DNA of 64,000 nucleotides from a virus: IMG/VR virus record IMGVR_UViG_3300045988_144682; one strand, given 5' to 3'. The notes below the pieces were generated by a model. It was given only the letters and a program-made list of their open reading frames with translations, made no database searches and was not told where the DNA came from. A program made the position numbers and the translations under genes. Positions within the stretch are counted from its first letter, which is position 1. The number at the start of each line of letters is the position of its first letter. Below are positions 8 to 40,344 of this stretch, in pieces.

Positions 8-1867
8 ATGGCGTTACGTTCACAGAATCCAGGACTTGATAGAACTGATAGAATTATTAAAAACAATTATACATTTGAGTATAATGGCGATTTTACATCT
101 ATAAATGATGTTGTGTTGCAAGGCTTTTCAATGGGGCATTTTCAGTCAAAATGGATTGATAAGATCGTGAATAAAAAGCGAAAGATGTATGATATCCAGA
201 ATATGCCATTTTCTGAAATGCAACCAAACAAAAAAATAGCAAAGTGGCTTGATGAGTTCACATTGATGGATGATGAAAGAACTGTAAAGCTGAATGATGC
301 TCAGAAAGCAGATCTGAATCTATTTATTCAGAAACCGTATAGCTTCATACAGTGGGAACAAGGAAGTGGTAAAACATTCGCCGGAATTGCAATAGGTAAA
401 TATCGTTTGCAACACGATCATGTGAAAAATGTGTTTATTGTGAGTACGGCAATCTCAATCAAGAACAACTGGCAGGATGTATTGGATCAGTACGGTATTG
501 ATTTTGTTATGATTGAAAGCCTTGCAGATATTCAAAATATCAAAGAAGGTCAGTTTGTAATTATCACTTTAAATATGATGTGTAAATATCATAAATTCAT
601 CAAGCGATATGTAAAATCAATCTGCCAGAAAGCCGTTTTGATTTTTGACGAGTCGGATAATATGAGTAATCAGGACAGTAAACGGACAAAAGCCGTATTA
701 AATGCTTTTCGCCGGTTGAAGTATAAAACACTGATGACGGGTACAAGCACAAGGAATAATATCACTGAAATTTATCCTCAGTTTGAATTATTGTACAACA
801 ATTCTATCAATATGTTGTCTGAATGTGAGTATATTATGGAACGCAACAAAGATGGAGAACTGGAAGATCAGATAAATGAATATTATTTACAGCCATATCC
901 AGCATATCGTAAGGGTAGTAAGTTATTTGCAGCGAGTCATATTCCAGAGAAAATCACTGTATTTGGCGTATCTCAGTTCACACAAGATATTCTTAATGCA
1001 GACATTTTGAAACAGATGATTGATAAGACGATTATCACACGTACATTTGAAGAAATTACTGGCAAACAGCTTTATGAGATTAAACAGATTGCTTGTGAAA
1101 TGGGAGAAGAAGAGAAGCGTCTGTATAAGGTTGCATTGGATGAGTTCTATAAAATGGAATATCTGTTTGCGAAAACTGGGAACAGCCGGAAAGATGCAAT
1201 GCTGAAAATTTTGAATCAGTTGCTTGCACTTTTGAAGATTTGCGCTGCGCCTCAGACGTTGAGAGAGTACAATCAGTCGATAATGCCGGAAAAATTCAAA
1301 ACTGTATTATCACTTTTAGACGAATTTTCTGATGAAAGAGTTGCTATTGGTGTGCGTCATATTTCAGTAGTAAATGCATATGCAAAGGAAATCAGAAAAG
1401 CGTTTCCGGGCAGACCTATATTTGTGATTACTGGAAATGAAACTACATTGAAACAGAGAAAGAAAATTGTCAAAGAGTTAAAAGAAACAACAAACGGAAT
1501 TCTGATAAGCACACAGCAGAGCTTATCTGCAAGTATGAATATTGATTTTGTGAATAAGTGTATTATTCCAGAATTGCACTGGAACAACTCTAGCATGAGT
1601 CAGTATTATTTCCGCTTTATTCGTTATACTTCAACGGAATTCAAGCAAGTGTATTTTGTAACTTATGAGAATAGTATTGAAAGCAATCTGTTAAAAATGA
1701 TTCTTGTAAAAGACAAATTGAATCTGTTTATGAAGGATCAGGATTTGACAGACGATGAACTATATGAACGTTTTGGAGTGGATAGTAATATGCTGCAGAA
1801 CCTCATGTACAAAGAAAAAACGGAAGAAGGTTATGTAATAAGATGGGGAAATCAAAAAGTATCGTAA
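8..1867 (+). CDS. SNF2-family (superfamily 2) helicase/ATPase
   Basis: 619-aa ORF with Walker A-like QGSGKT, DExD-like IFDESDN, motif III MTGTS and a C-terminal helicase lobe. Motif recall only. Confidence 0.8.
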   Translation: MALRSQNPGLDRTDRIIKNNYTFEYNGDFTSINDVVLQGFSMGHFQSKWIDKIVNKKRKMYDIQNMPFSEMQPNKKIAKWLDEFTLMDDERTVKLNDAQKADLNLFIQKPYSFIQWEQGSGKTFAGIAIGKYRLQHDHVKNVFIVSTAISIKNNWQDVLDQYGIDFVMIESLADIQNIKEGQFVIITLNMMCKYHKFIKRYVKSICQKAVLIFDESDNMSNQDSKRTKAVLNAFRRLKYKTLMTGTSTRNNITEIYPQFELLYNNSINMLSECEYIMERNKDGELEDQINEYYLQPYPAYRKGSKLFAASHIPEKITVFGVSQFTQDILNADILKQMIDKTIITRTFEEITGKQLYEIKQIACEMGEEEKRLYKVALDEFYKMEYLFAKTGNSRKDAMLKILNQLLALLKICAAPQTLREYNQSIMPEKFKTVLSLLDEFSDERVAIGVRHISVVNAYAKEIRKAFPGRPIFVITGNETTLKQRKKIVKELKETTNGILISTQQSLSASMNIDFVNKCIIPELHWNNSSMSQYYFRFIRYTSTEFKQVYFVTYENSIESNLLKMILVKDKLNLFMKDQDLTDDELYERFGVDSNMLQNLMYKEKTEEGYVIRWGNQKVS

Positions 1868-2253
1868 AGAAACAACCATATATAAGGAAAGAAATATATT
1901 CCATTGATGAAGTGTATAACGCTGTAAAAGATGGACTCTTTGAAGAGAAAAAGACATTTGTTGATATGGATGGAGATATGATTAAAGCAAATAGTCAGAG
2001 ATATCAGACGTTTTTCACAAAAGGAATTAAGTGTTGCCGGTGTGGAATCGAAGGTAGATATTTTGCAAAAGAGAAAAATCCGAATGCAAGAAGATATCAT
2101 TTGAATCTGTATGCGGTAGATCAAGATGGGGAAGAAGTGATGATGACAAAAGATCATATCATCCCCGTTTCCAAAGGTGGCAAGAATACGCTTGAAAATT
2201 ACCAGACAATGTGCAGAAAATGCAACGTGCAAAAGGGGAATAAATTGGTTTGA
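1843..2253 (+). CDS. HNH endonuclease
   Basis: 136-aa ORF with HNH core DHIIPVSKGGKNTLENYQTMCRKCNVQKG and an upstream CCRCG knuckle. Overlaps the helicase 3' end by 25 nt. Confidence 0.85.
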   Translation: MGKSKSIVKKQPYIRKEIYSIDEVYNAVKDGLFEEKKTFVDMDGDMIKANSQRYQTFFTKGIKCCRCGIEGRYFAKEKNPNARRYHLNLYAVDQDGEEVMMTKDHIIPVSKGGKNTLENYQTMCRKCNVQKGNKLV

Positions 2254-2666
2254 CATATGATAGAGAAAATATGCGATGGATAGAATACACAAAACTATCT
2301 AATGGACAATCGGCGGTAATCTGTTTTGATAAGAACTATAGACATGAAATAGGAAGTGGATATGATTATGCAGTTGCTTTTGCTATTGCTAATAAAAAGA
2401 AAGTTTTAAGGCAGTGGCTTAATAGTGACGGTTACGGCGATTTAGATATGACAACAACTGGGAAATGTGGTGTTGAGGGATTATTGTGGGCTTTTAAAAT
2501 GGTTCGTGAATTTATAGGAACACATATGTATGAAAATGATAGAATCATTGTATATGGTTCAGATGCAAGAAGACAAAAGGTATATAGACATTTTCTCACT
2601 ACTAGATTAGGGTTTGAAGAAATACTTGATCCATATTGGGGAAGATGCCTTGCAAAAAACTTATAA
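2250..2666 (+). CDS. hypothetical protein
   Basis: 138-aa ORF with a TTG start in the track (first ATG at 2271). No recognisable motif. Confidence 0.55.
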   Translation: MTYDRENMRWIEYTKLSNGQSAVICFDKNYRHEIGSGYDYAVAFAIANKKKVLRQWLNSDGYGDLDMTTTGKCGVEGLLWAFKMVREFIGTHMYENDRIIVYGSDARRQKVYRHFLTTRLGFEEILDPYWGRCLAKNL

Positions 2667-2683
2667 ACAAACCAAAATAAATG

Positions 2684-2712
2684 TTGACACAATAATAAAA
2701 ATGTGGTATCTT
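2684..2712 (+). promoter_or_regulatory. sigma-70/sigA-type promoter
   Basis: TTGACA at 2684-2689, 17-nt spacer, extended -10 TGgTATCTT at 2704-2712. Lies upstream of the 2761 start. Confidence 0.6.
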
Positions 2713-2760
2713 ATATATAAAGAAAAACACAACTAATAAAAATTCACGGAGGTATTAAAA

Positions 2761-3924
2761 ATGAAGAAATCAACAATCCCTTACACAGTTATGCAGTTAA
2801 AGAAAATGTATGAGAAATCTGGAATCCTGGATTTTGATTGCCCTATTCAGAGAAGATATGGAATGTGGGACGATTATAAAAAGAGTCTGTTACCACATTC
2901 AATGCTTATCGGGTTTGTCATTCCACCATTGTATTTTACAAAAGAAAACAAAGGCACAAGAGATAAAAAGAACAGACCAGTATCTAATTATTCTTGCATT
3001 GACGGTCAGCACAGACTTTGCAGCTTATTCAGTTTTATCAATGATGAGTATGCACTGCATCCAGAAACGCCGGAAGTTGAAATTGATGGAGAAACTTATG
3101 AAATCGCTGGATTGAAATTCTCAGAGCTGCCGGAAGAAATTCAGCAGATGATTAACGGATATGTTTTCACGAATTATAACTTAGAAGAATGCACAGATGA
3201 AGAAATCGAGGAAATGTTCTTTAGACTGAATAACGGATCTGGATTAAGTAAAACTCAGATTGCCAATGTAAAACTGGGTATGAATCTGGCAAAATTTGTT
3301 AAAGAGATTCTTGCCGGAAAGTTCTTTGAAGATGTTTGTCATTTTACACCAGCTCAGTATCGTAGAGCAGCAGACGAAAAGACACTTTTACAAGCTATGA
3401 TGCTGTTAGATGTAAAAGACGGAGATTACGAACTTACTTCTATCTCAGAAGGTCAGGTAACAAAGTATGCGGAAAAACTGCATGATTCTTATACAGATGA
3501 AAAGCGTGAACGTCTTCTTAAAATTGTTAAGTATCTGGAAGACGGATTCGACCAGAAAGAAAAATTTATGAAGGTTGTAAATATTCCGATTTTCATGTAC
3601 ATGGCAGATGAGGCAATCAACAACGATATTAAAGCAGAAGATTTCTACAAATGGTTTGAGATCTTTGCAGACAAATATAACCCGGATTGTGCCTATGCAC
3701 AGTATTGTTCTACTGGATCTGTCAAGAAAGAGAAGGTGGAGGGAAGAATTTCTGTTATGAGTAAAGATTTCAGAGATTATTTCAAACTTAATGATAACAA
3801 TAATGAGGTAGAAGAAACAGAAATGGAAGAATCTGATGAATCCAGCGAACAGGTTACAGAGTCTAAAACTCCACTGACTGACGATTTCATGGATGATTTA
3901 GATAATGAACTTCCATTTTGCTAA
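2761..3924 (+). CDS. DUF262 / ParB-nuclease-superfamily protein with SSB-like acidic C-terminal tip
   Basis: 387 aa. GGAGG RBS. N-terminal signature FDCPIQRRYGMW ... IDGQHRL. C-terminus DDFMDDLDNELPFC. Confidence 0.75.
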   Translation: MKKSTIPYTVMQLKKMYEKSGILDFDCPIQRRYGMWDDYKKSLLPHSMLIGFVIPPLYFTKENKGTRDKKNRPVSNYSCIDGQHRLCSLFSFINDEYALHPETPEVEIDGETYEIAGLKFSELPEEIQQMINGYVFTNYNLEECTDEEIEEMFFRLNNGSGLSKTQIANVKLGMNLAKFVKEILAGKFFEDVCHFTPAQYRRAADEKTLLQAMMLLDVKDGDYELTSISEGQVTKYAEKLHDSYTDEKRERLLKIVKYLEDGFDQKEKFMKVVNIPIFMYMADEAINNDIKAEDFYKWFEIFADKYNPDCAYAQYCSTGSVKKEKVEGRISVMSKDFRDYFKLNDNNNEVEETEMEESDESSEQVTESKTPLTDDFMDDLDNELPFC

Positions 3925-4847: not shown

Positions 4848-5144
4848 ATGAAGAAAATTCGTAAAATGATTTGCATTGCAACTATTACATTGATGGCTTG
4901 TTTCGCTTGTACGGCTTGTGGGACTACATACTAGGAAGCGGTATCAGAAGAATATGCCACAGATGATAGTATATGTGGAAACTATTTCACAACTATCACG
5001 GAATGGGATGATACCACGGCATATTACAAAATCGCATATGCAAAAGATACTAAAGTGAAATACCTAATTATTGTATCTGGATATAAATTTGGAATAACAC
5101 CATTGTATAACGCCGATGGTACATTACAGGTATATGAAGAATAA
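4848..5144 (+). CDS. putative small lipoprotein interrupted by an in-frame TAG (4932-4934)
   Basis: AAAAGGA RBS. The N-terminus MKKIRKMICIATITLMAC carries a lipobox. The frame stays open through TAG for 70 more codons to TAA at 5142-5144. It is missing from the ORF track because both halves are under 60 aa. Confidence 0.5.
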
Positions 5145-5203
5145 ATAAAAGCAGTTTTTTATCTTAAAATAAATACAATATATAGTATTTTAATGTTAGT
5201 GAA

Positions 5204-5503
5204 ATGCAATATATAGAGTGCGAGGTGTACACAAATATGCAACCTTTTAAAAAATGGAAAGAGGCATCAGATAATAAGTATAAAAGAAGAATGTTCGGTG
5301 TAATCAATAGCTCTAGTGATGAGAAACTGATAGAACTTAACAAAGAATTCTATAATGGAATTGAGTTTGATAGAAGATTAGGAAAAAAGGTTTCTAAAGT
5401 GACTATCGAAATTGACGGGCTAATAAATGAAGAGATGCGTAAAAGAGGGCTTAAAACATGTGACGATATCGAGGAAGATATTTGGTTTAGTCAGCATAGA
5501 TAA
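5204..5503 (+). CDS. hypothetical protein
   Basis: 99-aa ORF with a weak RBS. Confidence 0.45.
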   Translation: MQYIECEVYTNMQPFKKWKEASDNKYKRRMFGVINSSSDEKLIELNKEFYNGIEFDRRLGKKVSKVTIEIDGLINEEMRKRGLKTCDDIEEDIWFSQHR

Positions 5504-5517
5504 TAAAGGAGAAAATT

Positions 5518-6834
5518 ATGAAGTTAGGAAGAATTGTAACAAGTTTATTAGAGAATGATCTGTATAAATTCAGTATGGGACAGGCAATTTATCATCAGTT
5601 CTCAGACTACAAGACAACATGGAGTTTTAAATGCCGGAACAAAGACGTACATTTCACAAAAGAAATGCTGGAAGAAGTCAGAGAGCAGATTAAAGCATAT
5701 TGTGAGCTGCGGTTCACAGAAGACGAACTGAGTTATCTGGACGGTATCAAGTGGATTAAAGGATCTTACGTTGATTTCCTAAGACTCTGGAAACCACGAT
5801 ATGAAGATTTCACAATTACAGATGATGCAGAATGTGGACTTGTCATTGAAACTGCCGGTACATGGTTAAATACTTCTATGTACGAAATCCCGACACTTGC
5901 TATTGTAAATGAAGTGTATTTCAGAATGCAGTATGATTATGATGAGCTGTTAAGTAGCTTCAAGAAAAGACTGGATAACAAGTATGCAAATCTTCGCAAT
6001 GGTCATTGGTATTGTGGCACATTTTCAGAGTTTGGACTTCGCCGGAGATTATCTGCAGAAGCACAGGAACTTGTTGTTGAGAAGTTCTCACACCTGAATG
6101 ATACGGCGCATTGTGCATCAAGATTTATTGGCACTTCAAACGTATTTCTTGCGAAAAAATACGGAGTTACACCAGTTGGCACAATGGCACATGAATGGAT
6201 TATGTGTGTAGGACAGGGAAATCACAAGCACAATCCGGCATATTCTAATTGGTATGCACTTGACGCATGGGTTAAGGAATATGGAGTTTTGAACGGTACA
6301 GCACTGACAGATACAATTACAACCGACTGTTTCTTGGAAGATTTCCAGCTTACATTCGCAACATTGTTTTCTGGCGTTCGTCATGATTCGGGTGATCCGA
6401 TGGTGTGGGGCGAAAAGATGATTAAGCACTATGAAAAACTGGGGATTGATACGAAAACAAAAACATTGCTTTTCTCTGATTCACTGGATTTTGAGAGAGC
6501 AGATAAGATTTGCCGACATTTTTCAAAGAAAGCAAAAGTCGCATTCGGAATCGGCACATATTTGTCAAATGATACTTGCGTAAGTCCACTCAATATCGTT
6601 ATGAAGACTACAAAATGCAATGGTCAGGATGTGGCTAAAATTTCCGATGTTGAAGGAAAGGGAATGTGTAAGAATCCAGAGTATGTGGATTATTTGAGAA
6701 GATCAATTGGTTGGAGAATGGAGTCCTCAAAGAAAGCAGAAATGGACGAAAAACTGACTTCATATTTTAAAAGCAGTTTTACAGGAGAAAAGACACCTGT
6801 TTTAATACAGGGTAGTGGGAAAAGTAGAATGTAA
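5518..6834 (+). CDS. pncB: nicotinate phosphoribosyltransferase
   Basis: 438 aa, collinear with E. coli PncB as I recall it: LLENDLYKFSMGQA, FGLRRR, GTSNV, GTMAHEW, ALTDTITTD, GVRHDSGDP..WGEK...YEKLGID, LLFSD, FGIGT, NIVMK...NG..VAK.SD. Confidence 0.92.
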   Translation: MKLGRIVTSLLENDLYKFSMGQAIYHQFSDYKTTWSFKCRNKDVHFTKEMLEEVREQIKAYCELRFTEDELSYLDGIKWIKGSYVDFLRLWKPRYEDFTITDDAECGLVIETAGTWLNTSMYEIPTLAIVNEVYFRMQYDYDELLSSFKKRLDNKYANLRNGHWYCGTFSEFGLRRRLSAEAQELVVEKFSHLNDTAHCASRFIGTSNVFLAKKYGVTPVGTMAHEWIMCVGQGNHKHNPAYSNWYALDAWVKEYGVLNGTALTDTITTDCFLEDFQLTFATLFSGVRHDSGDPMVWGEKMIKHYEKLGIDTKTKTLLFSDSLDFERADKICRHFSKKAKVAFGIGTYLSNDTCVSPLNIVMKTTKCNGQDVAKISDVEGKGMCKNPEYVDYLRRSIGWRMESSKKAEMDEKLTSYFKSSFTGEKTPVLIQGSGKSRM

Positions 6835-6852
6835 AGAAAGGCGGTATCTGAA

Positions 6853-7596
6853 ATGAGTTTTAATGCAAAAGAAGCAAAAGATAAGTGCGTAGAGTGGATC
6901 AGAGAATGGTTCAAAGAAAATGGGAATCAGTGCAAAGCTGTAATTGGAATCAGTGGAGGTGTTGACTCTTCTGTAGTAGCTGCATTATGTGTGGAAGCAT
7001 TAGGGAAAGAAAGAGTATACGGTGTGTTGATGCCACAGAACAGCCAGGATGACATTGATTATTCTTATGAGTTATGTGAACATCTGGGAATTGAACATTG
7101 TGTTATTGATATTGGTAATACTGTAGAGGATATGTTGACTCTTATGTACATTAAAAGTGGGATTAAAGTTTCTAATCAGACAGAAATAAATATTCCGGCT
7201 AGAGTGAGAATGGTAATGCTGTATGCAATTTCTCAGTCGATTGACGGGCGTGTTGCAAATACATGTAATTTGTCTGAGAACTATGTTGGTTACAGTACAA
7301 AATATGGAGATGCAGCAGGGGACTTTTCGCCACTGGAATCACTGACAAAAACAGAAGTAAAAGCGATTGGTAAAGAACTTGGACTGCCGGAACGTCTGGT
7401 TGTAAAAGTTCCAACTGACGGTTTATGTGGAAAGACAGACGAAGAAAAACTGGGATTTTCATATGATGTACTGGATAAGTATATCAGAACTGGCGAAATT
7501 GAAGACATGCCAAAGAAACGTTCGATTGACACATTGCATATGTTGAATGATTTTAAAATGAAACCTATGGCACATTTTGAGTATACAGGAGAATAG
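6853..7596 (+). CDS. nadE: NH3-dependent NAD+ synthetase
   Basis: 247 aa with PP-loop GISGGVDSS and the downstream YGDAAGDFSPL motif. Ends in TAG, in frame with the next ORF. Confidence 0.88.
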   Translation: MSFNAKEAKDKCVEWIREWFKENGNQCKAVIGISGGVDSSVVAALCVEALGKERVYGVLMPQNSQDDIDYSYELCEHLGIEHCVIDIGNTVEDMLTLMYIKSGIKVSNQTEINIPARVRMVMLYAISQSIDGRVANTCNLSENYVGYSTKYGDAAGDFSPLESLTKTEVKAIGKELGLPERLVVKVPTDGLCGKTDEEKLGFSYDVLDKYIRTGEIEDMPKKRSIDTLHMLNDFKMKPMAHFEYTGE

Positions 7597-7599
7597 CAT

Positions 7600-8001
7600 A
7601 TGAGTAAAAACCACGCAAAAGAACTTTTTGGAAAATTTAATGAGAACACAGATGATTATGACAAGTACATAGACACTGTAAAATATTGCGAATCTATAGA
7701 GGATGAAATTAGATCGGAAGAAAATGTAAAATTTCATGCTAAACTTCGTAGATTAGAAGGTTTGTTAAGTTGTCCTAATTGGAGAGAAAGAAAAAATGAT
7801 ATGTTATCACTTATTCATAAGGTACAGGCAGAGATAGAGCTTAAATATGGGGATTGCATAGCAAAAGAAAGTAAAACAATGTGTTCACAAGTCGGAAAGC
7901 ATATTAAAGGAGAAGATAATGGGAAAAATAATATACGCAGAGAAAATAACTTGTCAGAAGTTTATAAATCTGTTCAAACTTCACGCAAAAACGAAAGATG
8001 A
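7600..8001 (+). CDS. hypothetical protein
   Basis: 133-aa ORF with GGAGA RBS. Its 3' end overlaps the Nudix gene by 83 nt. Confidence 0.5.
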   Translation: MSKNHAKELFGKFNENTDDYDKYIDTVKYCESIEDEIRSEENVKFHAKLRRLEGLLSCPNWRERKNDMLSLIHKVQAEIELKYGDCIAKESKTMCSQVGKHIKGEDNGKNNIRRENNLSEVYKSVQTSRKNER

Positions 8002-8491
8002 AAAAGATATTGAATATATGGTTGCTTCAAGAGCCAAAGAAGTTGATGAACTAAAAGCGATCAATCCAAGTAAACAAGTTGATGCTGTTGCAATTCGTGC
8101 AACAACAGAAGAAGGAAAACTGGTACTTATCAGACAGTACAGATATGCAATCGGTGGTTATATCTATGAACTTCCGGCTGGACTTGTTGACGATGGAGAA
8201 AGTGTTTGTGATGCAGCAATAAGAGAAATGCATGAGGAAACAGGGTTGACACTTGAAATCACAGATTTGCCGATTGGAAATAAGGGTGGTTATTCAAGTG
8301 CCGGAATGACTGACGAAACTTGCACACTTGTAGTAGGCAAGGTAACTGGCGAAATTTCCGATAAATATAAAGAAGCGTCAGAAGAAATTGAAGTATTGCT
8401 TGTAGATAAAAAAGAAGCAGCACGTATCTTAAAAGAAGAAAACGTATGTATCAGATTAGCTCTTGTGCTTATGATGTTTATACATGAGTAG
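7919..8491 (+). CDS. Nudix hydrolase, ADP-ribose pyrophosphatase-like
   Basis: 190 aa with AAAGGAGA RBS. Nudix box GLVDDGESVCDAAIREMHEETGL. The preceding IRQYRY...ELPAG is typical of ADPRases. Confidence 0.8.
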   Translation: MGKIIYAEKITCQKFINLFKLHAKTKDEKDIEYMVASRAKEVDELKAINPSKQVDAVAIRATTEEGKLVLIRQYRYAIGGYIYELPAGLVDDGESVCDAAIREMHEETGLTLEITDLPIGNKGGYSSAGMTDETCTLVVGKVTGEISDKYKEASEEIEVLLVDKKEAARILKEENVCIRLALVLMMFIHE

Positions 8492-8500
8492 GAGGATATT

Positions 8501-8851
8501 ATGAATCTATATGATGGTTGCGAGTCAAATAAAGAAATCATTTATGGTTTTACTTCATTTGATTTTTACGATAAATTAGAAAAACGACAAAATGAAATTT
8601 TATCACAAGGAAAGAAAGTTGTGTTTGTGGAATCAAATACAAGTATTCATTCAGGTGCAAGAGTTGTTATATATTCTGATAAAATTCCCGAAATAATGCA
8701 GAACTATAAACATAGATACGTCAAAATCAATGGTAAGTGGACAAGGAACAGTCTTCTTGGATATTGTGATTGCTGCGGAATGTATACAGAACTTGTATGC
8801 TTAAGTAACAAAGGAAGAACATGTGAAAATTGTTCAGACTGGGATTTCTAA
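8501..8851 (+). CDS. hypothetical Cys-rich protein
   Basis: 116 aa with GGAGG RBS. C-terminal CDCCG...C...CENC cluster. Confidence 0.6.
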   Translation: MNLYDGCESNKEIIYGFTSFDFYDKLEKRQNEILSQGKKVVFVESNTSIHSGARVVIYSDKIPEIMQNYKHRYVKINGKWTRNSLLGYCDCCGMYTELVCLSNKGRTCENCSDWDF

Positions 8852-8942
8852 TAAAACTAAGATTTCAAGAAAAGGAGTGATACAGAAATAGTGCTGGCTC
8901 TACAGAATACAAAGAATTTTATAATTAAACCATAATAAATGG

Positions 8943-8970
8943 TTGACAAATCAAGAAAACATGATATACT
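8943..8970 (+). promoter_or_regulatory. sigA-type promoter
   Basis: TTGACA at 8943-8948, 16-nt spacer, TGaTATACT at 8962-8970. Confidence 0.55.
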
Positions 8971-8995
8971 ATAATCAGAAACGAGGTGATATGAA

Positions 8996-9247
8996 ATGTC
9001 AGGCACGAATTTGAATCGGATTAAAAACAAGCGTATGCAGAAAAATAACACTTCTGGTGTTACCGGCGTTTCTTTTCATTCAGGAATGGGACAATGGTAT
9101 GCAAGAATCTCTTTTAAAGGGAAAACGTATAGCTTGGGTTATTTTGATGAACTTGATGATGCGGTTAAAGCCAGGAGAGATGCGGAAAAGAAGTTGCATG
9201 ATGGTTTCATATCTCAAATAAGCCATAATAAAGTTATAGAAGTGTAA
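8996..9247 (+). CDS. AP2-domain DNA-binding protein
   Basis: 83 aa. SGVTGVSFHSGMGQWYARISFKGKTYSLGYFDELDDAVKARRDAE matches the AP2/integrase-type DNA-binding fold seen in phage and HNH-associated proteins. Confidence 0.75.
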   Translation: MSGTNLNRIKNKRMQKNNTSGVTGVSFHSGMGQWYARISFKGKTYSLGYFDELDDAVKARRDAEKKLHDGFISQISHNKVIEV

Positions 9248-11991: not shown

Positions 11992-12370
11992 GGGGATGAA
12001 ATTGGATTCGATTGGGCATGGAACGGATATAATTCGCAGGAGCGACTACCTAATAGTCAAACTTAAAATAAACGCTGAAGAATTAAGAATGGTAGCGTAA
12101 GCTATATCAGTCTGTGAGATTGGGATATTGGTAACAGGCTGTATTAAGAGCTAATATCCAAAAGGAGAATGTTTTCTCTGTAAGTTGACTCTTCAAAAAA
12201 CAACAGAGTGGTGGACGTTGTAAGAAACCTTTACAAACCCAAAAACGGAGTAGTTACCTGATTCACTGGGGCAACCGTTTTCAAACAAAATGCCCGAATG
12301 AATGGTATTGCGTAAAAGATTATATAATTAGTACGTGTTTAAGACGGGGGTTCGACTCCCCCCATCTCCA
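11992..12370 (+). ncRNA. ssrA: tmRNA (SsrA)-like RNA
   Basis: 5' GGGGATGAAATTGGATTCGA. 3' GGGGGTTCGACTCCCCC-CATCTCC-A. The acceptor GGGGATG/CATCTCC includes a G3:U70 pair. No CCA is encoded. The tag frame is uncertain; the best candidate ends ...NAEELRMVA-TAA at 12098-12100. Confidence 0.75.
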
Positions 12371-12496
12371 CTGTAATAGCTGGTTATTGTTGTTACGGCT
12401 ATTACTAAAAACCTTTCTATCTAAATGGGGCGATGTAAAAATCGTCCCAAATAAAAAAATCACACAACTTTAAACAAACAATAATAAAGAAAATGC

Positions 12497-20824: not shown

Positions 20825-23458
20825 ATGAGAACAGGATTAACAAGCTCTCAGGTAACAAAGAACAGAGAAAAATATGGTTCAAATAAGTTACCAGAAAAGA
20901 AACTAAAAACAGGATTTCAGTTTTTCATGGAAACATTTGAAGATAGACTGAACCAGATTCTTTTAGCAATGATGATTGTGTTTACGGTTTTAGCCGTATT
21001 CGGACAAGGATCGTATTCAGAGCCGATAGGTGTTGCGGTAGTATTACTTGCAATTGCATTTATTGGAATGAATACAGGATTGAAAAGCCAGAAAAGTGCA
21101 AAAGAATTGAAAGACAGAACTTCGATTCATTATTGTAATGTAATCCGTGATGGAAAGGTTGAGCATATCAACTCAAATGATTTGGTTGTTGGCGATCTTG
21201 TAATTATTCAGTCCGGCGAAGCAATTTATGCAGACGGATATTTAGTAGAAGGAAATGTAAAAGTTGATAACTCCGTTTTAAATGGGGAATCAGATCCTTG
21301 TAAAAAGACACCGTGGGAAAATGAAGATTCATCCCCAATTATTATAGGTGGGAAACGACATGCAAATTCAAATGATTATGTAGATTCGTATTCATTATTT
21401 GCTGGCACAACAGTAACAGACGGAGAAGGAAAGATGATCGTTACAAACGTAGGTGTTAATACTGTAAACGGTCAGACAATTTCCACGATTGATGAAATCG
21501 AAGAAACAAAGACATCACTGGAAATTCAGTTAGATGATCTTGCCGGGCAGATTAGTAAATTCGGATATATTGGAGCAGCTATCATCGTTGTTGCACTGAT
21601 TGTAACAAATATCATTCAGCTTGGTGGTATTGCTGAATACCTCAATATCGGGTGGATTGGTATTTTGAAAAATGTCCTTACAGTAGCAGTTACGGCACTT
21701 ACAATTATTGTTGCAGCAGTTCCAGAAGGACTTCCATTGATTATTAACCTTATTACAGCACAGAATGCGAAAGTAATGATTAAACATAACGTGCTTGCGA
21801 AACATACAAATAAGATCCCGGAAGCCGGAAACATTCAGTTGCTTTGCACAGATAAGACAGGAACTCTTACGGTAGGTAAACTTGTACCAGTTGAAAATGT
21901 GATGGGCGATAAAAATGAAGTACCGAAAGATTCAGTAATTGAAAATATGTTTAAGTTAAACGTAGCGTTAAATAGTAGTGCTATGTATGATGAAAATAAA
22001 AATATTGTTGGTGGTAACGCTACAGAACGTGCATTACTTACAATGATTTCAGATAGAGAGTATAAAGACTTTACGGATTCTGTAGAAGTCACAAACAGAA
22101 AAATTTTCAATAGTGCAAATAAGTTTAGTGCTATTGAAACGAGTGGAAAAGATGGAAAGATTACCTATTATAAAGGTGCGCCTGAAAAATTGATTGATGC
22201 AGCAGTTTCTTATGAAACAACAGATGGAATCAAACCAATTGAAAAGGAAAAATTAAAAGAAATCGTTAAATCATATGCTACAAAAGCTATGAGGGTAATC
22301 GCAACTGGATATAGTAAATCCGTATTACCAGAGGAAGGATTCCCGGATGATTTAGTTCTTGTTTCTTTGGTTGCTATTCGTGATGATGTTCGTCCAGAAG
22401 TACCGGAAGCAGTTGCAAAAATGCATGAAGCCGGTGTACAGGTAATGATGGTAACAGGAGATGTCATTGATACTGCTAAAGCTATTGCTAAAGATGCAGG
22501 ACTTATTACAAGTGATTCTGATATCGCAATGTCAGCTATTGATTTTGATGCCTTATCAGACGAAGAAGCAAAAGAGAAACTTCCGTATATCAAAGTAATT
22601 GCAAGAGCTACGCCAAATACGAAACTGAGAATTGTAAGACTTGCACAGGAGATTGGTCTTTGCGTTGGAATGACAGGAGATGGAACAAATGATGCACCAG
22701 CTTTAAAGGCTGCAGATGTAGGATTTTCAATGGGATCTGGTACGGATGTTTGCAAAGAAGCAGGAGATATCATTATTACAGATGATAACTTTGTATCTAT
22801 TACAGATGCCGTTCTATTAGGAAGAACATTCATGCACAATGTTATGAAGTTCCTGAAATTCCAGCTACCTATCAATGTAGGGTTAGTAATTTTGAGTATT
22901 TTATATCCGATTATTATGGCAGTAGAAGCTGTGGCAGCAGTACAGATTCTTGTAATCAATATTGTAATGGACTCTCTTAATTCTCTTTCGTTTGGTGGAG
23001 AACCAGCAAAAGATGAGTATATGAAAGAAAAGCCTATTCCAAAAGGATCGAAACTTCTTTCAAGAGAAACTATTGGACAGATTGCAGTATCAGTTGTAGC
23101 ATTTATCGGAATTTTTGGAATTACATTACTGCCACCAATTCAGAAAGTATTTGGAAATGATGAAACCGTTTATGCGACAGTAAGGTTTGCGCTTCTTGTT
23201 ATGATGGCAACATTTAATGGATTTAACATCAGAACCGATGGATTCAATTTATTTAAAGGAATTGGAAAGAATAAGCTCTTTGTTGAGATTGCGGTAGCAA
23301 TTTTTGTACTGACATTTGTTCTTGCTCAGTTTGGTGGAGCAATTATGGGATGCGCAGCACTGACAGCTACACAGTGGGGCATTACAGTTGGGCTTGCATT
23401 CATGATTATCCCAATTGATCTGGTAAGAAAAGCCGTTATCAGAGTAAAAAGAAAGTAG
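20825..23458 (+). CDS. P-type (P2, Ca2+-type) cation-transporting ATPase
   Basis: 877 aa. Phosphorylation site CTDKTGTLT, actuator-like NGES, M4 VPEGLPLI, MVTGD, hinge TGDGTNDAPALK, and multiple TM helices. Confidence 0.92.
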   Translation: MRTGLTSSQVTKNREKYGSNKLPEKKLKTGFQFFMETFEDRLNQILLAMMIVFTVLAVFGQGSYSEPIGVAVVLLAIAFIGMNTGLKSQKSAKELKDRTSIHYCNVIRDGKVEHINSNDLVVGDLVIIQSGEAIYADGYLVEGNVKVDNSVLNGESDPCKKTPWENEDSSPIIIGGKRHANSNDYVDSYSLFAGTTVTDGEGKMIVTNVGVNTVNGQTISTIDEIEETKTSLEIQLDDLAGQISKFGYIGAAIIVVALIVTNIIQLGGIAEYLNIGWIGILKNVLTVAVTALTIIVAAVPEGLPLIINLITAQNAKVMIKHNVLAKHTNKIPEAGNIQLLCTDKTGTLTVGKLVPVENVMGDKNEVPKDSVIENMFKLNVALNSSAMYDENKNIVGGNATERALLTMISDREYKDFTDSVEVTNRKIFNSANKFSAIETSGKDGKITYYKGAPEKLIDAAVSYETTDGIKPIEKEKLKEIVKSYATKAMRVIATGYSKSVLPEEGFPDDLVLVSLVAIRDDVRPEVPEAVAKMHEAGVQVMMVTGDVIDTAKAIAKDAGLITSDSDIAMSAIDFDALSDEEAKEKLPYIKVIARATPNTKLRIVRLAQEIGLCVGMTGDGTNDAPALKAADVGFSMGSGTDVCKEAGDIIITDDNFVSITDAVLLGRTFMHNVMKFLKFQLPINVGLVILSILYPIIMAVEAVAAVQILVINIVMDSLNSLSFGGEPAKDEYMKEKPIPKGSKLLSRETIGQIAVSVVAFIGIFGITLLPPIQKVFGNDETVYATVRFALLVMMATFNGFNIRTDGFNLFKGIGKNKLFVEIAVAIFVLTFVLAQFGGAIMGCAALTATQWGITVGLAFMIIPIDLVRKAVIRVKRK

Positions 23459-23466: not shown

Positions 23467-23697
23467 ATGGTCATGAGAGATAGAGAATACAAAACGGTTG
23501 AAAATATTGTATTGATTTGTTATACAGTTGGATTAGTCCTTACATGCGTAACAAAATTTATACCATTTATATTTTTAACGGTTGCAGCATATCCTATTTC
23601 ACTTGCTATATTAAACAATAATAAATGTGGGAACAGAACAAAAAACTGTTCCCAGAAAACAAAAAAGTTCAATAAGAAGGAGAGAACATTATGGTAA
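23467..23697 (+). CDS. hypothetical small membrane protein
   Basis: 76 aa with two hydrophobic helices and a basic tail. Confidence 0.5.
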
Positions 23698-24257
23698 GTT
23701 TGGTAAAAGGACAGAAAGTTGATCTTACAAAAGGAAACGCAGGGTTAAAGAAAATTCTTGTCGGTTTAGGATGGGACACAAATAAGTACGATGGAGATGA
23801 TTTCGATTTAGACGCATCTGCATTTCTGCTTGATAAAAATGGAAAAGTGACAACTGATAAAGACTTTGTATTCTTCAACAATCTGGTACATCCGAGTGGA
23901 GCAGTAAAACATATGGGAGATAACCTTACTGGATCTGGCGATGGAGATGATGAACAGATTATTGTTGACCTGGCAAAGATCCCGGAAAATATCGAAAAGA
24001 TTGCATTTACAGTAACAATTTATGAAGCAGACAGTAGAATGCAGAATTTCGGTATGGTGTCTAATGCGTATATTCGTATGTCAAACGAGGAAACAGGCGA
24101 AGAAATGATTAGATACGATCTTGGAGAAGATTATTCTACAGAAACATCTATGGTTCTTGGAGAGTTGTATCGTCATAATGGCGAGTGGAAATTCAATGCG
24201 ATTGGTGCTGGTTATGCTGGCGGTTTAACTGCACTTTGCAATGGATATGGATTATAA
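23691..24257 (+). CDS. TerD-family protein (paralog 1)
   Basis: 188 aa. [39 protein letters not shown]. Confidence 0.92.
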
Positions 24258-24272: not shown

Positions 24273-24884
24273 ATGGCAGTTAGTTTAACAAAAGGTGAAA
24301 AGGTAAATCTTTCAAAAGTGGTGGAGAAACTGGCGAATGTAACCGTTGGTCTTGGTTGGGATGCAGCGGAATACGGAGATAGTATTGATTGTGATTCTTC
24401 TGTATTTGTACTTAAAAATGTAGTTGGAAAGTCTGGAATGTTCGGCTTATTTAAGAAAGAAGAGAAAGCAAGATTAGTAAATGATGAGGATATCATTTAC
24501 TATGGTCACAAAAAACATTCAAATGGTTGTATCAAACATCATGGAGATAATTTGGTTGGTGGCAGTGTAGGTGATGATGAGCAGATTTCAATAAATTTGA
24601 AAGAAATGCCGGAAGATGTTACTAGACTGGCTGTTGTAATCAATATCTATAATTGTAGAAATAGAGGGCAACATTTTGGCATGATTAAAAACTGTTTTGC
24701 ACGTATTGTAGATGATGCGACCAAAGAAGAAATCTGCCGATATAATTTATCAAATGACTATAACGGTTGTACAGCACTGATTGTGGCTGAGTTCTACAGA
24801 GAAGATGGAGAATGGCATTTTGAAGCTGTTGGAAAAGGCACACATGATGGCAGTATTTCAGAACTTGCAAGAAGATACAAATAG
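24273..24884 (+). CDS. TerD-family protein (paralog 2, divergent with insert)
   Basis: 203 aa. GLGWD, CDSSVFVL, GDNLVGGSVGDDEQI, WHFEAVGKG. Confidence 0.88.
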   Translation: MAVSLTKGEKVNLSKVVEKLANVTVGLGWDAAEYGDSIDCDSSVFVLKNVVGKSGMFGLFKKEEKARLVNDEDIIYYGHKKHSNGCIKHHGDNLVGGSVGDDEQISINLKEMPEDVTRLAVVINIYNCRNRGQHFGMIKNCFARIVDDATKEEICRYNLSNDYNGCTALIVAEFYREDGEWHFEAVGKGTHDGSISELARRYK

Positions 24885-24900: not shown

Positions 24901-25479
24901 ATGTCAGTAAGTTTGAATAAAGGCGATAGAGTCGAACTTTCAAAGGACAGCAGAGTGAATGCAGTTTCCGTGTGTTTAGGTTGGGACACAGCTAAATACG
25001 ATGATGATGGAGATTTTGATTTGGATGCGTCTGCATTTGTTATCGGTAGAAATGGCATGACAAGAAGAGATGAGGATTTCATTTTTTACAATAATCTGCA
25101 GCATCCTAGTGGTGGTATCACTCACAGTGGAGATAACCTTACCGGCGGTGGAGATGGGGATGATGAAGTAATCAAAGTCGTTCTTGATAAACTTCCAAAA
25201 TATGCCGAAAAGGTTGTGTTCTGTGTAACAATTCACGAAGCAGAGAGAAGAATGCAGAACTTTGGAATGGTCGAAAACTCTTTTATTAGGGTGGTTGATG
25301 ACAATACTGGTTGTGAGATTACACGTTACGACTTAAAAGAGAAATTCGGAGATTCTACTGCAATTATCGCAGGTGAAATCTACAGAGATGGATCTGGTTG
25401 GAAATTCCATGCTGTAGGGGATGGATTCAATGGTGGACTTTTTGACTTATGTGAAAAATTTGGAATTGAGGTAAAGTAG
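24901..25479 (+). CDS. TerD-family protein (paralog 3)
   Basis: 192 aa. LGWD, DLDASAFVI, GDNLTGGGDGDDEVI, WKFHAVGDGF. Confidence 0.92.
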   Translation: MSVSLNKGDRVELSKDSRVNAVSVCLGWDTAKYDDDGDFDLDASAFVIGRNGMTRRDEDFIFYNNLQHPSGGITHSGDNLTGGGDGDDEVIKVVLDKLPKYAEKVVFCVTIHEAERRMQNFGMVENSFIRVVDDNTGCEITRYDLKEKFGDSTAIIAGEIYRDGSGWKFHAVGDGFNGGLFDLCEKFGIEVK

Positions 25480-28076: not shown

Positions 28077-29252
28077 ATGGAGAACATGATGAGTGAATTA
28101 GATATGAACTGGGAAATTTTAGCGAATAAGGATTATGCATTTTTGACAGAAAGCCCCCTCTTAGGTAATAATATTCTTCTTTTGACTTTGGGCGGTTCTC
28201 ATGCATATGGAACGAATGTGGAAACGTCAGATATTGATGTTAGAGGAATTACTTATAATCCAGTTGATTCTCTGCTTGGGAACAGAGTTTTTGAGCAGTA
28301 CGAAGACGAAGCGACAGATACCGTTGTATATGGATTAAATAAAATGTTTAAGTTGTTATTGGAGTGTAACCCAAACACTATCGAGCAGCTTGGTTCTAAA
28401 CCAGAACATTATATTATTCTCAATGATGACGGTAAAAAGCTGATTGAAAACAGGAAAATCTTTCTTTCTAAAAGAGCGATTTATACTTTTGGCGGTTACG
28501 CAAATTCACAGTTACGCCGGTTGCAGAATGCGTTGGCAAGAGACAGTTATCCACAGGCAGAGAAAGAAAAACATATTCTTGGATCAATCAGAAGTGCAAT
28601 GAACAGTATTATTGAGAAATTCCATACAGTTAATGGAAAGTTGATTGAATATAATTTTGCCAATGACAATGGAAAAATGGTTCATGCATATAAGGAATAC
28701 AACCAAAAAATGCAAGAGATGGAACAGTTTAAGGACTTTGAGTATGGATCACTCAACCTTTACCCGGATAAATCCGATAGAGAGGGGATGGACGTTGAAA
28801 TCTATATGGACGCTTGCTTACATCATTATCCATTGAGAGATTACAAGGGTATCTGGAACGGTATGAATACTATCGTAAAAGATTACGAAAAACTGGGTAA
28901 GCGAAATACGAAGAAAGATGACATGCATCTTAATAAGCACGCACAACATTTAGTCAGACTGTATCTTATGTGTATTGACATTCTTACAAAAGAAGAAATC
29001 ATTACATATCGTGCCGATGAACATGATTTGCTTATGAGCATTAGAAATGGAGAGTTCCAGAAGCCGGAAGGTGGTTATCGCCCAGAATTCTTTGAACTGG
29101 TTGATGATTTGGAAAAGAAAATGAAAGATGCAGCAGAAAACACAAGTCTGCCGGATTGCCCAGATACAGAAGCAGCTTATGAAATGCTTGTGGAAATGAA
29201 CAAAAATCATATTCTGAAGATGGAGGATTATTATGACGGAAGCACATATTAA
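28077..29252 (+). CDS. Pol-beta-fold nucleotidyltransferase, RlaP-type (RNA-repair associated)
   Basis: 391 aa. LLLTLGGSHAYGTNVETSDIDVRGI is the GS..YG...SD.D signature of this nucleotidyltransferase family. Confidence 0.65.
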   Translation: MENMMSELDMNWEILANKDYAFLTESPLLGNNILLLTLGGSHAYGTNVETSDIDVRGITYNPVDSLLGNRVFEQYEDEATDTVVYGLNKMFKLLLECNPNTIEQLGSKPEHYIILNDDGKKLIENRKIFLSKRAIYTFGGYANSQLRRLQNALARDSYPQAEKEKHILGSIRSAMNSIIEKFHTVNGKLIEYNFANDNGKMVHAYKEYNQKMQEMEQFKDFEYGSLNLYPDKSDREGMDVEIYMDACLHHYPLRDYKGIWNGMNTIVKDYEKLGKRNTKKDDMHLNKHAQHLVRLYLMCIDILTKEEIITYRADEHDLLMSIRNGEFQKPEGGYRPEFFELVDDLEKKMKDAAENTSLPDCPDTEAAYEMLVEMNKNHILKMEDYYDGSTY

Positions 29253-31276: not shown

Positions 31277-31843
31277 ATGAATAAACCATATGATGTAGGA
31301 TTTATTTGCGGACGTTTCCAAACGTTCCACAAAGGACATGAAAAATTAGTTGAAACTGGGTTAATGCTTTGTGACAGACTTTTAATTTTTATTGGAAGTT
31401 CTCAGGAAGACGGAACAGAAAGAAATCCGTTCAACATTACAACCAGAGAAAAAATGTTAAAAGAGATATACGGTGGGCGTGACGATATCATGATTTACGG
31501 CTTACCAGACTTAACCACTGAAAATGATATTACTCCGGCGTGGGGAAGTTATCTACTGGATAAGGTAGACAGATATATTTATAAGAAGCCGGATATTATG
31601 ATTTATGGGAATGATGAGAGTAGATCTGCCTGGTTCTCCAAAGAAGACCTTAAAGGAATGACAGAGCTTATTATCAATCGTTCAGATTTGCCGATTTCTG
31701 CCACAATGGTAAGAGATTATATGGTTCACGATCAGAGAAAAGAATGGATGCAACTTGTAAATCCAAAACTTCATAAGATGTATGATGAATTGCGTATGCA
31801 GCTTATGTCCGTTGAATACTACAAAAAAGTAGCGGAGGTATAA
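31277..31843 (+). CDS. nicotinamide/nicotinate mononucleotide adenylyltransferase (NadM/NadR-type)
   Basis: ATG at 31277 after GGAGGA (the track ORF starts at 31193). GFICGRFQTFHKGHEKLV is the (H/T)xGH cytidylyltransferase-fold motif in the GRFQPFH form. C-terminal ISATMVR. Confidence 0.8.
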   Translation: MNKPYDVGFICGRFQTFHKGHEKLVETGLMLCDRLLIFIGSSQEDGTERNPFNITTREKMLKEIYGGRDDIMIYGLPDLTTENDITPAWGSYLLDKVDRYIYKKPDIMIYGNDESRSAWFSKEDLKGMTELIINRSDLPISATMVRDYMVHDQRKEWMQLVNPKLHKMYDELRMQLMSVEYYKKVAEV

Positions 31844-32530: not shown

Positions 32531-32902
32531 ATGAGAACGAATGATATTTTATTAGACGGATTTAATGATATCCGCACACTTCAAAGATATCTTTATATGT
32601 CAGATGAACATTATATTGAGATAGAAAATGTTATTGGAGTGAAACTGAGAATTAGAATGGGAGAAAACTTACATTATTATTGTAAGAACATGAATTTCCC
32701 AGATTTGCCAGATGCATGTTTTTCGGAATCAATGACGAATAAAACTATGTTAGGTATTATTGACCAGTTGAAAGAGAATCCGGCAACTGAATATCCAAAC
32801 AGTTTTAAGAATAGATGGGATGAGATAGTATCAATAACATCTGCAAACGTAGCTCAGAACGAATATAAATGGGCGAATGGAAGATACAGAGGGAGTGTGT
32901 AA
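32531..32902 (+). CDS. hypothetical protein
   Basis: 123-aa ORF. Confidence 0.55.
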   Translation: MRTNDILLDGFNDIRTLQRYLYMSDEHYIEIENVIGVKLRIRMGENLHYYCKNMNFPDLPDACFSESMTNKTMLGIIDQLKENPATEYPNSFKNRWDEIVSITSANVAQNEYKWANGRYRGSV

Positions 32903-32903
32903 G

Positions 32904-37862: not shown

Positions 37863-37936
37863 GGATCATTAGCTCAGTTGGTTAGAGCATCCGGCTCATA
37901 ACCGGGCGGTCACTGGTTCGAGTCCAGTATGATCCA
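37863..37936 (+). tRNA. tRNA with CAT anticodon (Met, or Ile2 if lysidinylated)
   Basis: Canonical cloverleaf GGATCAT-TA-GCTC-AGTTGGTTA-GAGC-A-TCCGG-CTCATAA-CCGGG-CGGTC-ACTGG-TTCGAGT-CCAGT-ATGATCC-A. No CCA is encoded. Confidence 0.9.
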
Positions 37937-40330: not shown

Positions 40331-40344
40331 GTATATTCCATAAT

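Follow-up and report, generated by a model that had tools for sequence, protein, structure and literature searches.

The stretch of DNA analysed here (the window) comprises 64,000 nucleotides (nt) of one strand of a viral genome, IMG/VR record IMGVR_UViG_3300045988_144682, and its subject is a set of genes for the salvage of nicotinamide adenine dinucleotide (NAD+) found at three places within it: a cluster of pncB, nadE and a Nudix hydrolase gene, a separate adenylyltransferase gene and, further downstream, the gene of a long nicotinamidase-like enzyme. As predicted from their sequences, these genes would on balance probably give the phage a working deamidated (Preiss-Handler) salvage route to NAD+, split over the three loci. 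The window has 35% GC, is coded on one strand and belongs to a large, uncultured phage whose host, to judge from the names attached to homologues, is probably a gut member of the Lachnospiraceae. The 64 kb were read out of a genome of about 150–175 kb, the longest contig with an identical PncB measuring 175 kb and contigs of the same species in IMG/VR extending up to 164 kb. Replication genes (DnaB, DnaG, DnaE, SSB, Sak and LigA) are found in the window together with RNA-repair genes, a transfer-messenger RNA (tmRNA) and a tRNA-Met.

The five open reading frames (ORFs) to which a first-pass annotation had assigned the pathway are all present on the + strand at the coordinates given below, where PRPP is phosphoribosyl pyrophosphate, NaMN and NaAD are the mononucleotide and adenine dinucleotide of nicotinate, NMN is nicotinamide mononucleotide and ADPR is ADP-ribose.

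5518–6834, + strand: pncB, nicotinate phosphoribosyltransferase (nicotinate + PRPP to NaMN); curated cut-offs passed, PF17767 and PF04095
6853–7596, + strand: nadE, single-domain ammonia-dependent NAD+ synthetase (NaAD to NAD+; possibly NaMN to NMN); TIGR00552, PF02540
7919–8491, + strand: Nudix hydrolase of the ADP-ribose/ADP-sugar pyrophosphatase type (predicted ADPR to AMP + ribose-5-phosphate); PF00293, profile and fold
31277–31843, + strand: NadM/archaeal-type pyridine-mononucleotide adenylyltransferase, 188 amino acids (aa); PF01467, motifs, PDB matches
42551–43456, + strand: long-form nicotinamidase-like amidohydrolase, 301 aa (predicted nicotinamide to nicotinate + NH3); residues, profile, fold

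These are real genes and not chance ORFs; a PncB identical to that of the window has entries in 342 blocks of the assembly collection, a number from which the phage clade also appears to be abundant in metagenomes. Relatives of PncB with at least 80% identity were found in 146 stretches of IMG/VR, and the linkage counts reported here rest on 80 IMG/VR loci retrieved with PncB relatives. Among the phages in GenBank, in a few of which pncB is annotated, megablast with positions 5000–9000 of the window gave zero matches, and the region therefore has no annotated close relative there; tblastn with PncB returned only 14 distant records of 31–43% identity, including Atu_ph07 and the huge phages of the LR7565xx series. 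Domain content was assessed by a Pfam scan of 60 distinct ORFs of the window, about 15 further + strand ORFs of at least 90 aa and all shorter ones lying outside it.

PncB and NadE

Both PncB and NadE score above the curated equivalog cut-offs of NCBIfam, which bears out the identities first given to them. PncB reaches 479.5 bits on NF003704 (cut-off 379) and 419.4 bits on TIGR01514 (cut-off 269.55), matches the two Pfam domains of the nicotinate phosphoribosyltransferases (NAPRTases), PF17767 and PF04095, and its gene is preceded by a ribosome-binding site, AAAGGAGAA. Its sequence includes the stretch GTMAHEW, the histidine of which may be the counterpart of the autophosphorylated histidine of ATP-coupled NAPRTases such as those of Escherichia coli and Salmonella. 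NadE scores 192.5 bits on TIGR00552 (cut-off 63.65), matches PF02540 and, at 247 aa, is made up of one domain with the PP-loop ISGGVDSS and no glutaminase domain. The adjacency of the two genes is kept in all of the loci that reach that far (78 of the 80).

The ground on which the cluster is supposed to be co-transcribed is the narrowness of its intergenic gaps (3–18 nt). Between positions 4700 and 9400, a promoter scan returned 28 promoter-like sites against 18.6 expected, which is not informative, and a terminator scan found no convincing terminator within the NAD cluster.

The NadM-Type Adenylyltransferase

The protein encoded at 31277–31843 had been described as an adenylyltransferase of the NadM or NadR type, and its assignment to NadM is supported by both signature motifs, GRFQTFHKGH and ISATMVR, which align to the NMN adenylyltransferase (NMNAT) of Methanocaldococcus jannaschii (1F9A) and to the NadM of Francisella (2QJT). 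It matches PF01467, with neither a Nudix nor a kinase domain fused to it, and a GGAGG ribosome-binding site lies upstream of its gene; its best PDB match is 1F9A, accompanied by the NadM proteins of Francisella and Synechocystis and, in NCBIfam, by NMNAT models. Homologues at 75–79% identity are abundant, some of them labelled Lachnospiraceae, and orthologues at 66–71% identity adjoin nadE in about 30 other viral contigs. By analogy with the archaeal NadM, which takes both NaMN and NMN (PMC3376133), the phage enzyme may be expected to accept NaMN.

In a phage-like contig (L310, 4518–7564) a gene of the same type, with 76% identity, lies two genes downstream of LigA, so that the adenylyltransferase is there linked to an NAD+ consumer; this contig also carries RlaP, ClpP and a YonG_N domain.

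The Same Steps in Related Phages

Sister phages hold the same steps in contiguous clusters, a comparative context that backs the pathway reading of the window. In 60 of the 80 loci a short pncA, orf188, pncB, nadD and nadE are found inside about 13 kb; the short PncA, of about 174 aa, has the canonical residues, and the cluster is contiguous in the loci inspected, save for an occasional inserted gene. Two loci (L082 and L085) run from a Nudix-NadM fusion through pncA and pncB to nadE, while a third (L022) has the order pncA, a 170-aa adenylyltransferase with an HxGH motif, pncB, nadE and a Nudix gene whose product is 57% identical to that of the window; a fourth (L086) gives the same pncA, pncB, nadE and Nudix matches as L022.

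For NadD or a short PncA, tblastn found nothing better than an E value of 0.35 in the window. A pattern-based scan of IMG/VR for NadD, of which 80 of 93 matches were kept, matched no contig of the same species, and none of these 80 NadD-bearing contigs recurs among the contigs that bear NadM or the long PncA. In eight contigs of the same species pncB, nadM and the long pncA all occur, spaced as in the window. This is the distribution expected if NadM and the long PncA had displaced NadD and the short PncA, and it is the strongest support for the pathway: the genes of the window phage look like a scattered version of the cluster that is contiguous in its sisters, with NadM and the long PncA standing in for NadD and the short PncA.

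Some features of the sister clusters deserve mention in their own right. The fusion protein of L082 (3930–5384, 484 aa), encoded directly upstream of pncA-pncB-nadE, is composed of an N-terminal Nudix domain, a middle region and a C-terminal NadM-type adenylyltransferase, a domain order opposite to that of the classical bacterial NadM-Nudix proteins. In some clusters two further genes lie between pncA and pncB, namely a 220-aa, radical-SAM-like gene with a CxxxCxxC motif (L039, 4728–5402; L033, 4192–4851) and orf188 (L023, 5433–5999), which codes for a conserved 188-aa protein without an assigned function. An accessory role in the NAD cluster is possible for either gene.

The Long-Form Nicotinamidase-Like Enzyme and Its Island

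The 301-aa protein encoded at 42551–43456, put forward at first as a nicotinamidase-like isochorismatase, does possess the catalytic triad and metal-site residues of nicotinamidases. A phmmer search of the PDB pairs its D51, D93, H95 and H160 with D10, D52, H54 and H71 of the PncA of Pyrococcus horikoshii (1ILW), and its K194 and C240 lie in the motifs VKGQD and ARDYCV, which align with a second nicotinamidase (29iv). Each residue of the triad (D51/K194/C240) and of the metal site (D93/H95/H160) is at least 90% conserved in 50 diverse homologues. A metal-binding Asp-x-His with a distal histidine is the feature that sets nicotinamidases apart from the other hydrolases of the isochorismatase fold. 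The family profile, drawn from a family of 1372 representative clusters at E ≤ 1e-10, finds yeast Pnc1 first in the PDB (E value 9e-24), followed by 29iv, 1ILW, 2WT9 and 3PL1, with other isochorismatase-fold enzymes far below. The AlphaFold model has a predicted local distance difference test score (pLDDT) of 97.6, and its top 10 fold matches in the PDB are all nicotinamidases, with a target template-modelling (TM) score of 0.77–0.82 in nine and of 0.54 for the longer Drosophila enzyme.

In comparison with the characterized PncA and Pnc1 enzymes (1ILW, 2H0R, 2WT9 and 3PL1), the protein has the same isochorismatase-like fold, Asp/Lys/Cys triad and Asp-x-His...His metal site; unlike them, it is about 100 residues longer, with an extension of 45 aa at the N-terminus and some 65 aa inserted between the metal ligands, it is only 13–20% identical to them, it falls below the Pfam and NCBIfam thresholds and it is encoded alongside a vWA-like gene. 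Some of its close homologues have a precomputed match to PF00857, whereas the protein itself matches neither Pfam (PF00857 included) nor the PHROG families, so its assignment rests on family profile, conserved residues and fold. On these three grounds we regard the protein as a nicotinamidase-like enzyme of long form, with nicotinamidase as its predicted activity.

The gene has a partner immediately downstream:

43468–44127, + strand: vWA-like protein (DxSxS motif), partner downstream of the long pncA and outside the pathway; context

This gene is followed in turn by a PP2C (44158–44820), an unassigned ORF of 321 aa (orf321) and a 563-aa Ser/Thr kinase (45824–47515), so that the order in the window is RNA ligase, Thg1, PncA-like, vWA, PP2C, orf321 and kinase. 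In nearly all of the diverged relatives a homologue of the vWA-like protein, with 58–71% identity, follows the long PncA, which is flanked there by a DUF2828/DUF7788 protein, vWA and PP2C, and the long nicotinamidase-like gene always heads the vWA/PP2C/kinase island. Prophage contigs of Lachnospiraceae run RecT, PncA-like, RNA ligase, a 228-aa ORF, PP2C, Gad2-like and kinase, and SSB also lies beside the island there; the comparison of the island with that of the window (43468–47515) takes in L110, L141 and L227. The island is presumably comparable to the TerY-P triad, which is said to have been described by Anantharaman and co-workers in 2012.

Such company suggests another reading, in which the pathway of the phage would consist of pncB, nadM and nadE only, starting from nicotinate, and the PncA-like protein would belong to the island, acting on some other amide or together with host enzymes. 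Besides the constancy of the vWA-like neighbour, the ~17 kb read around the gene in temperate Lachnospiraceae phages contain no other NAD gene, and the extension, the insert and the missing Pfam match all set the protein apart from canonical PncA. Against this stand the conservation of the triad and of the nicotinamidase-specific metal site, and the fact that, whether searched by profile or by fold, the protein matches nicotinamidases better than any other enzymes of the isochorismatase fold. Moreover, a canonical pncA lies in or beside the pncB cluster of the sisters (directly joined to it in L022 and L082, and upstream by one or two genes in the NadD group), which argues that the nicotinamidase step is under selection in the clade, and it is this short pncA that tblastn did not find in the window of the present lineage. 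We consider the shortened pathway unlikely, and a pathway that includes the long nicotinamidase is preferred; the linkage to the island lowers confidence in the dedication of the long PncA to that pathway, not in its identity as a nicotinamidase, and the enzyme may act alone with host enzymes or serve another role.

The Nudix Hydrolase

The third gene of the cluster was annotated as an ADP-ribose pyrophosphatase next to nadE, and profile and fold agree in placing it in this type. The 190-aa protein matches PF00293 at 52.5 bits and contains the Nudix box GLVDDGESVCDAAIREMHEETGL. Of the first 26 PDB sequences found with its family profile, 24 are ADPR or ADP-sugar pyrophosphatases or NudF/NudE and two are deposited under other names, 8zr8 (‘methanol dehydrogenase activator’) and 2w4e (‘MutT/Nudix family protein’); all 50 fold matches listed are ADP-ribose pyrophosphatases or near Nudix relatives, with NUDT5 as the best (TM score 0.73–0.76 over the full length). 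We accept it as a Nudix enzyme of the ADP-ribose pyrophosphatase type, with ADPR as its presumed substrate.

A small gene precedes it in the window:

7600–8001, + strand: orf133, small gene of no assigned family between nadE and the Nudix gene; context

The product of orf133 matches neither Pfam nor PHROG families. The last 83 nt of the gene overlap the start of the Nudix gene in another frame, and automatic gene callers therefore shorten the latter to 157 aa, starting at 8018. This shorter version, called in identical contigs, was rejected and the start at 7919 upheld: the site at 7919 has the ribosome-binding site AAAGGAGAA, as do pncB and the 42551 gene, whereas none was found upstream of 8018; relatives without orf133 keep all 190 codons immediately after nadE; and bacterial and phage homologues of 47–92% identity span essentially the whole 190-aa query. 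In the model of the protein (pLDDT 87.9) residues 1–37 form the strands E3–9, E17–24 and E30–37, a block with pLDDT 86–92, which we take to be the N-terminal beta-sheet of ADP-ribose pyrophosphatases. The small gene is found in the 8 assemblies with an identical PncB, yet of the 13 IMG/VR contigs of the same species only 3 have it, the Nudix gene following nadE directly in the others.

The enzyme might instead act mainly on a different ADP-linked compound, for example NADH, NAD-capped RNA or an immune signal derived from ADPR. Its score falls short of the curated cut-off for ADP-ribose pyrophosphatases (TIGR00052, 33.8 against 79.55 bits), its family takes in broad ADP-sugar hydrolases, for example NUDT5 and NudE, and phage enzymes that degrade ADPR-based signals have been reported (PMC13232231). 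The profile and fold matches described above point to the ADPR pyrophosphatase type, and the linkage of the Nudix gene to nadE is kept in two lineages, a Nudix orthologue of 54–57% identity lying downstream of nadE in L022 and L086; the Nudix-NadM fusion of L082, in addition, echoes the known bifunctional NadM-ADP-ribose pyrophosphatase. A different main substrate is, in our judgement, improbable, and hydrolysis of ADPR is taken as the likely activity.

A Possible Route from Nicotinamide to NAD+

All of the gene identities having been upheld, the five enzymes together can cover, as was claimed for them, the steps from nicotinamide through nicotinate, NaMN and NaAD to NAD+; the substrate specificities and the flux through the pathway are what we infer from those identities. 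The nicotinamidase encoded at 42551 would convert nicotinamide to nicotinate and ammonia, PncB (5518) would join nicotinate to PRPP to give NaMN, the NadM-type enzyme (31277) would turn NaMN into NaAD, and the ammonia-dependent NadE (6853) would complete NAD+. The ammonia released by a nicotinamidase is what NadE consumes. The ADP-ribose pyrophosphatase (7919) would cleave free ADPR to AMP and ribose-5-phosphate, thereby clearing ADPR and directing its carbon back towards PRPP. Both nicotinamide and ADPR could be supplied by the NADase effectors of host defence systems and, in addition, by a cycle of the phage's own PARP and macro-domain proteins.

The last two steps might also run in the reverse order. 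In Francisella the pair of NadM and NadE can convert NaMN to NMN and then to NAD+ (PMC3376133), and in a phage working in this way NadE would act as NMN synthetase before the NadM-type enzyme, NaAD never being formed. The NadM family uses NMN well, and the replacement of NadD by NadM goes in Francisella with an NMN-synthetase NadE (PMC3376133); the phage NadE is short (247 aa), and the Francisella enzyme 3FIU is its third match in the PDB (113 bits). The first match, ahead of 3P52, is however the archaeal 2E18 of P. horikoshii (150 bits), and the NadE of M. jannaschii has NAD synthetase and no NMN synthetase activity, archaeal NadM being bifunctional (PMC3376133). Furthermore, a NadE with 60% identity to that of the window lies directly downstream of NadD in the sister phages and must there act on NaAD, which is therefore argued to be the substrate of the window NadE as well. 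Accordingly weighted, the Francisella order has a low probability and the classical one, from NaMN through NaAD to NAD+, is clearly favoured. An adenylyltransferase confined to NMN had been named as an observation that would overturn the pathway; this does not hold, as NadE might take the earlier of the two steps, in the manner of Francisella (PMC3376133), and either order of steps closes the pathway.

Several points weigh against a dedicated deamidated route. Three of its proteins lie below curated cut-offs: the adenylyltransferase (58.9 against 127 bits on NF002243 and 56.4 against 181.2 on TIGR01527), the long nicotinamidase (35.3 bits on PRK11609, cut-off 174), which also has the missing Pfam and PHROG matches noted above, and the Nudix protein, which besides TIGR00052 falls short of PRK10729 (34.9 against 248 bits) and NudE (41.4 against 169 bits). 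The long PncA is unlinked to other NAD genes, as also seen in the temperate phages, and its dedication to the phage pathway is uncertain. The scanned ORFs include no PRPP synthetase, and this enzyme, a NadD or a short PncA may sit outside the 64 kb read. Finally, a deamidated route costs more ATP than the combination of Nampt and Nmnat.

NAD+ Consumers and ADP-Ribosylation Genes

The same window encodes enzymes that use NAD+ and proteins that act on ADP-ribose:

57849–59831, + strand: LigA, NAD+-dependent DNA ligase (NAD+ consumer); PF01653, PF03120, BRCT
60579–61487, + strand: protein with a PARP catalytic domain (NAD+ consumer); PF00644, 86 bits
10108–10584, + strand: macro-domain protein, DarG-like, ADP-ribose remover and possible source of ADPR; PF01661
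59844–60263, + strand: another macro-domain protein, with a weaker match, encoded between LigA and PARP; PF01661, 22.7 bits against a cut-off of 22

The presence of LigA and PARP, proposed at the outset as NAD+ consumers of the phage, is confirmed by their Pfam matches. They stand at the two ends of a tight run (57849–61487) of LigA, the weak macro-domain protein, orf100 and PARP. The macro-domain protein at 10108, whose gene is found 1.6 kb further downstream than the Nudix gene, gives 67 bits on the DarG model NF048014, below its cut-off, and 145 bits on phrog_335. PARP and the macro-domain proteins look like a writer/eraser set for ADP-ribosylation.

From the pathway the phage would gain a sustained supply of NAD+ for its LigA and PARP during infection, and a buffer against the depletion of NAD+. 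Its genes may, on the other hand, be ordinary auxiliary metabolic genes that top up NAD+ for LigA and PARP in the replication of a large genome, with no specific role against NADase defence. The presence of both consumers in the window and the NadM gene two genes from LigA in another phage-like contig agree with this explanation, as does the framing of Li et al. (2024), who see in the pathway, in the first place, a way of supplying phage consumers with NAD+ independently (PMC11662467); no defence-related phenotype is known for these phage genes. Yet what enters the pathway, nicotinamide and ADPR, is precisely what NADase effectors produce; NARP1, NARP2 and NARP3 demonstrate that phage genes of NAD+ synthesis are able to act as counter-defence, and the two roles are not mutually exclusive. 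A purely metabolic purpose is thus a plausible alternative that falls somewhat short of an even chance, and a bona fide counter-defence role is put forward still more tentatively.

Relation to Known Systems

Three phage pathways of NAD+ reconstitution have been shown experimentally: NARP1 (Adps and Namat) and NARP2 (Nampt and Nmnat) (Osterman et al., 2024, bioRxiv 10.1101/2024.02.11.579819), and NARP3 (PnuC and NadR) (PMC13464706). None of them is deamidated, and their papers leave PncB and NadE undiscussed; a literature search for ‘NARP4’, or for an experimentally tested phage PncA, PncB or NadE, returned nothing relevant. For these characterized systems, the initial statement that published pathways use other chemistries is correct; it fails for bioinformatic work, since Li et al. 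(2024, Microbiome; PMC11662467) found complete salvage or Preiss-Handler pathways in 174 of 668 gut jumbo phages, pncB-nadD-nadE clusters among them, named LigA and PARP as consumers, proposed counter-defence against Sir2-type depletion and mentioned a phage pncA. The deamidated route can consequently not be presented as a distinct new solution, its concept having already been published at the bioinformatic level. What is particular to the present locus is NadM in place of NadD, a long in place of a short PncA, the dispersed layout and the attached ADP-ribose pyrophosphatase, together with a genome apparently below 200 kb and a probable Lachnospiraceae host.

The likeness to the clusters of these NAD-jumbo phages (PMC11662467) extends to a phage-borne pncB, nadE and adenylyltransferase in large gut phages, to LigA and PARP as consumers and to the purposes proposed, namely an independent NAD+ supply and possibly counter-defence; sister contigs of the window phage have exactly the pncB-nadD-nadE arrangement. 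In contrast to them, the window has an unlinked NadM-type enzyme, with no nadD in it or among same-species contigs in the NadD matches, a 301-aa nicotinamidase at a third locus and an ADP-ribose pyrophosphatase attached to the cluster. The NAD-jumbo phages are defined by a threshold of 200 kb, whereas the contigs here, which may be incomplete, reach about 175 kb, and the likely host is a member of the Lachnospiraceae rather than of the Bacteroidota.

With NARP2 the proposed route shares the start from nicotinamide and PRPP, the adenylyltransferase step at the end and the resynthesis of NAD+ by phage enzymes; NARP2, however, is amidated and needs two enzymes (nicotinamide to NMN to NAD+), whereas deamidation and re-amidation would be needed here. 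Membership in NARP2 was rejected: the only protein found with PF04095 is the NAPRTase equivalog, which scores 479 bits as such and 66.9 bits on the Nampt family of PHROG. NARP1 and NARP3 likewise rebuild NAD+ during infection, and NARP1 also handles ADPR; it re-uses this molecule directly by way of ADPR-PP, whereas the enzyme of the window would split it into AMP and ribose-5-phosphate, and NARP3, in turn, imports nicotinamide riboside. These two systems were rejected as well, no Adps (PRPS-like), Namat, PnuC or ribosylnicotinamide kinase domain being found among the 60 scanned ORFs of the window and the 188-aa adenylyltransferase being without a kinase domain. Outside phages, the closest parallels are the NadM networks of archaea, Acinetobacter and Francisella (De Ingeniis et al., 2012, PMC3376133), in which NadM similarly replaces NadD beside a single-domain NadE and is functionally coupled to an ADP-ribose pyrophosphatase of the Nudix family; the bacterial NadM is usually fused to Nudix, whereas the three genes here are separate and phage-borne.

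Other Genes of the Window

Directly upstream of the NAD cluster, the region 8–3924 encodes an HNH endonuclease and a protein with a GmrSD_N domain, and on its far side an SNF2/DEAD helicase that is cut by the start of the window and that, on full contigs, is a 987-aa fusion of N6-methyltransferase and helicase. This is possibly an anti-restriction or defence-related neighbourhood. Further downstream, an 877-aa P-type cation ATPase (20825–23458) precedes three tandem TerD paralogues (23691–24257, 24273–24884 and 24901–25479; 211–291 bits), a tellurite-resistance-type stress module that is unusual for a phage. Genes for RNA repair and translation rescue form a dense set (11992–12371, 28077–29252, 32877–34136, 37863–37936 and 38646–42518) that comprises the tmRNA (tag AEELRMVA), a RlaP-like nucleotidyltransferase, a CCA-adding enzyme, the tRNA-Met, a DUF2828/DUF7788 (TROVE-like) protein, an RNA ligase and a Thg1-like guanylyltransferase.

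Implications for Phage Biology

The depletion of NAD+ is a major anti-phage strategy of bacteria, and the three phage counter-pathways demonstrated against it do not include a deamidated one. The clade described here offers natural versions of such a pathway, with NadD or NadM, with a short or a long PncA, and with or without an ADP-ribose pyrophosphatase. It is conceivable, if doubtful at present, that the set of nicotinamidase, PncB, NadM or NadD, NadE and ADPR pyrophosphatase forms a fourth phage pathway of NAD+ reconstitution that rescues infection from Thoeris, DSR or SIR2-HerA, and that the long-form nicotinamidase, which is kept next to the island in many Lachnospiraceae phages, works as a stand-alone counter-defence gene feeding the Preiss-Handler enzymes of the host. 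Should the locus have no counter-defence role, it would be an ordinary auxiliary metabolic module of an already catalogued kind. If it does have one, classical Preiss-Handler chemistry would join the arsenal of phages, the cleavage of ADPR would be tied to the rebuilding of NAD+, and the large family of nicotinamidase-like proteins to which the long PncA belongs would gain a function.

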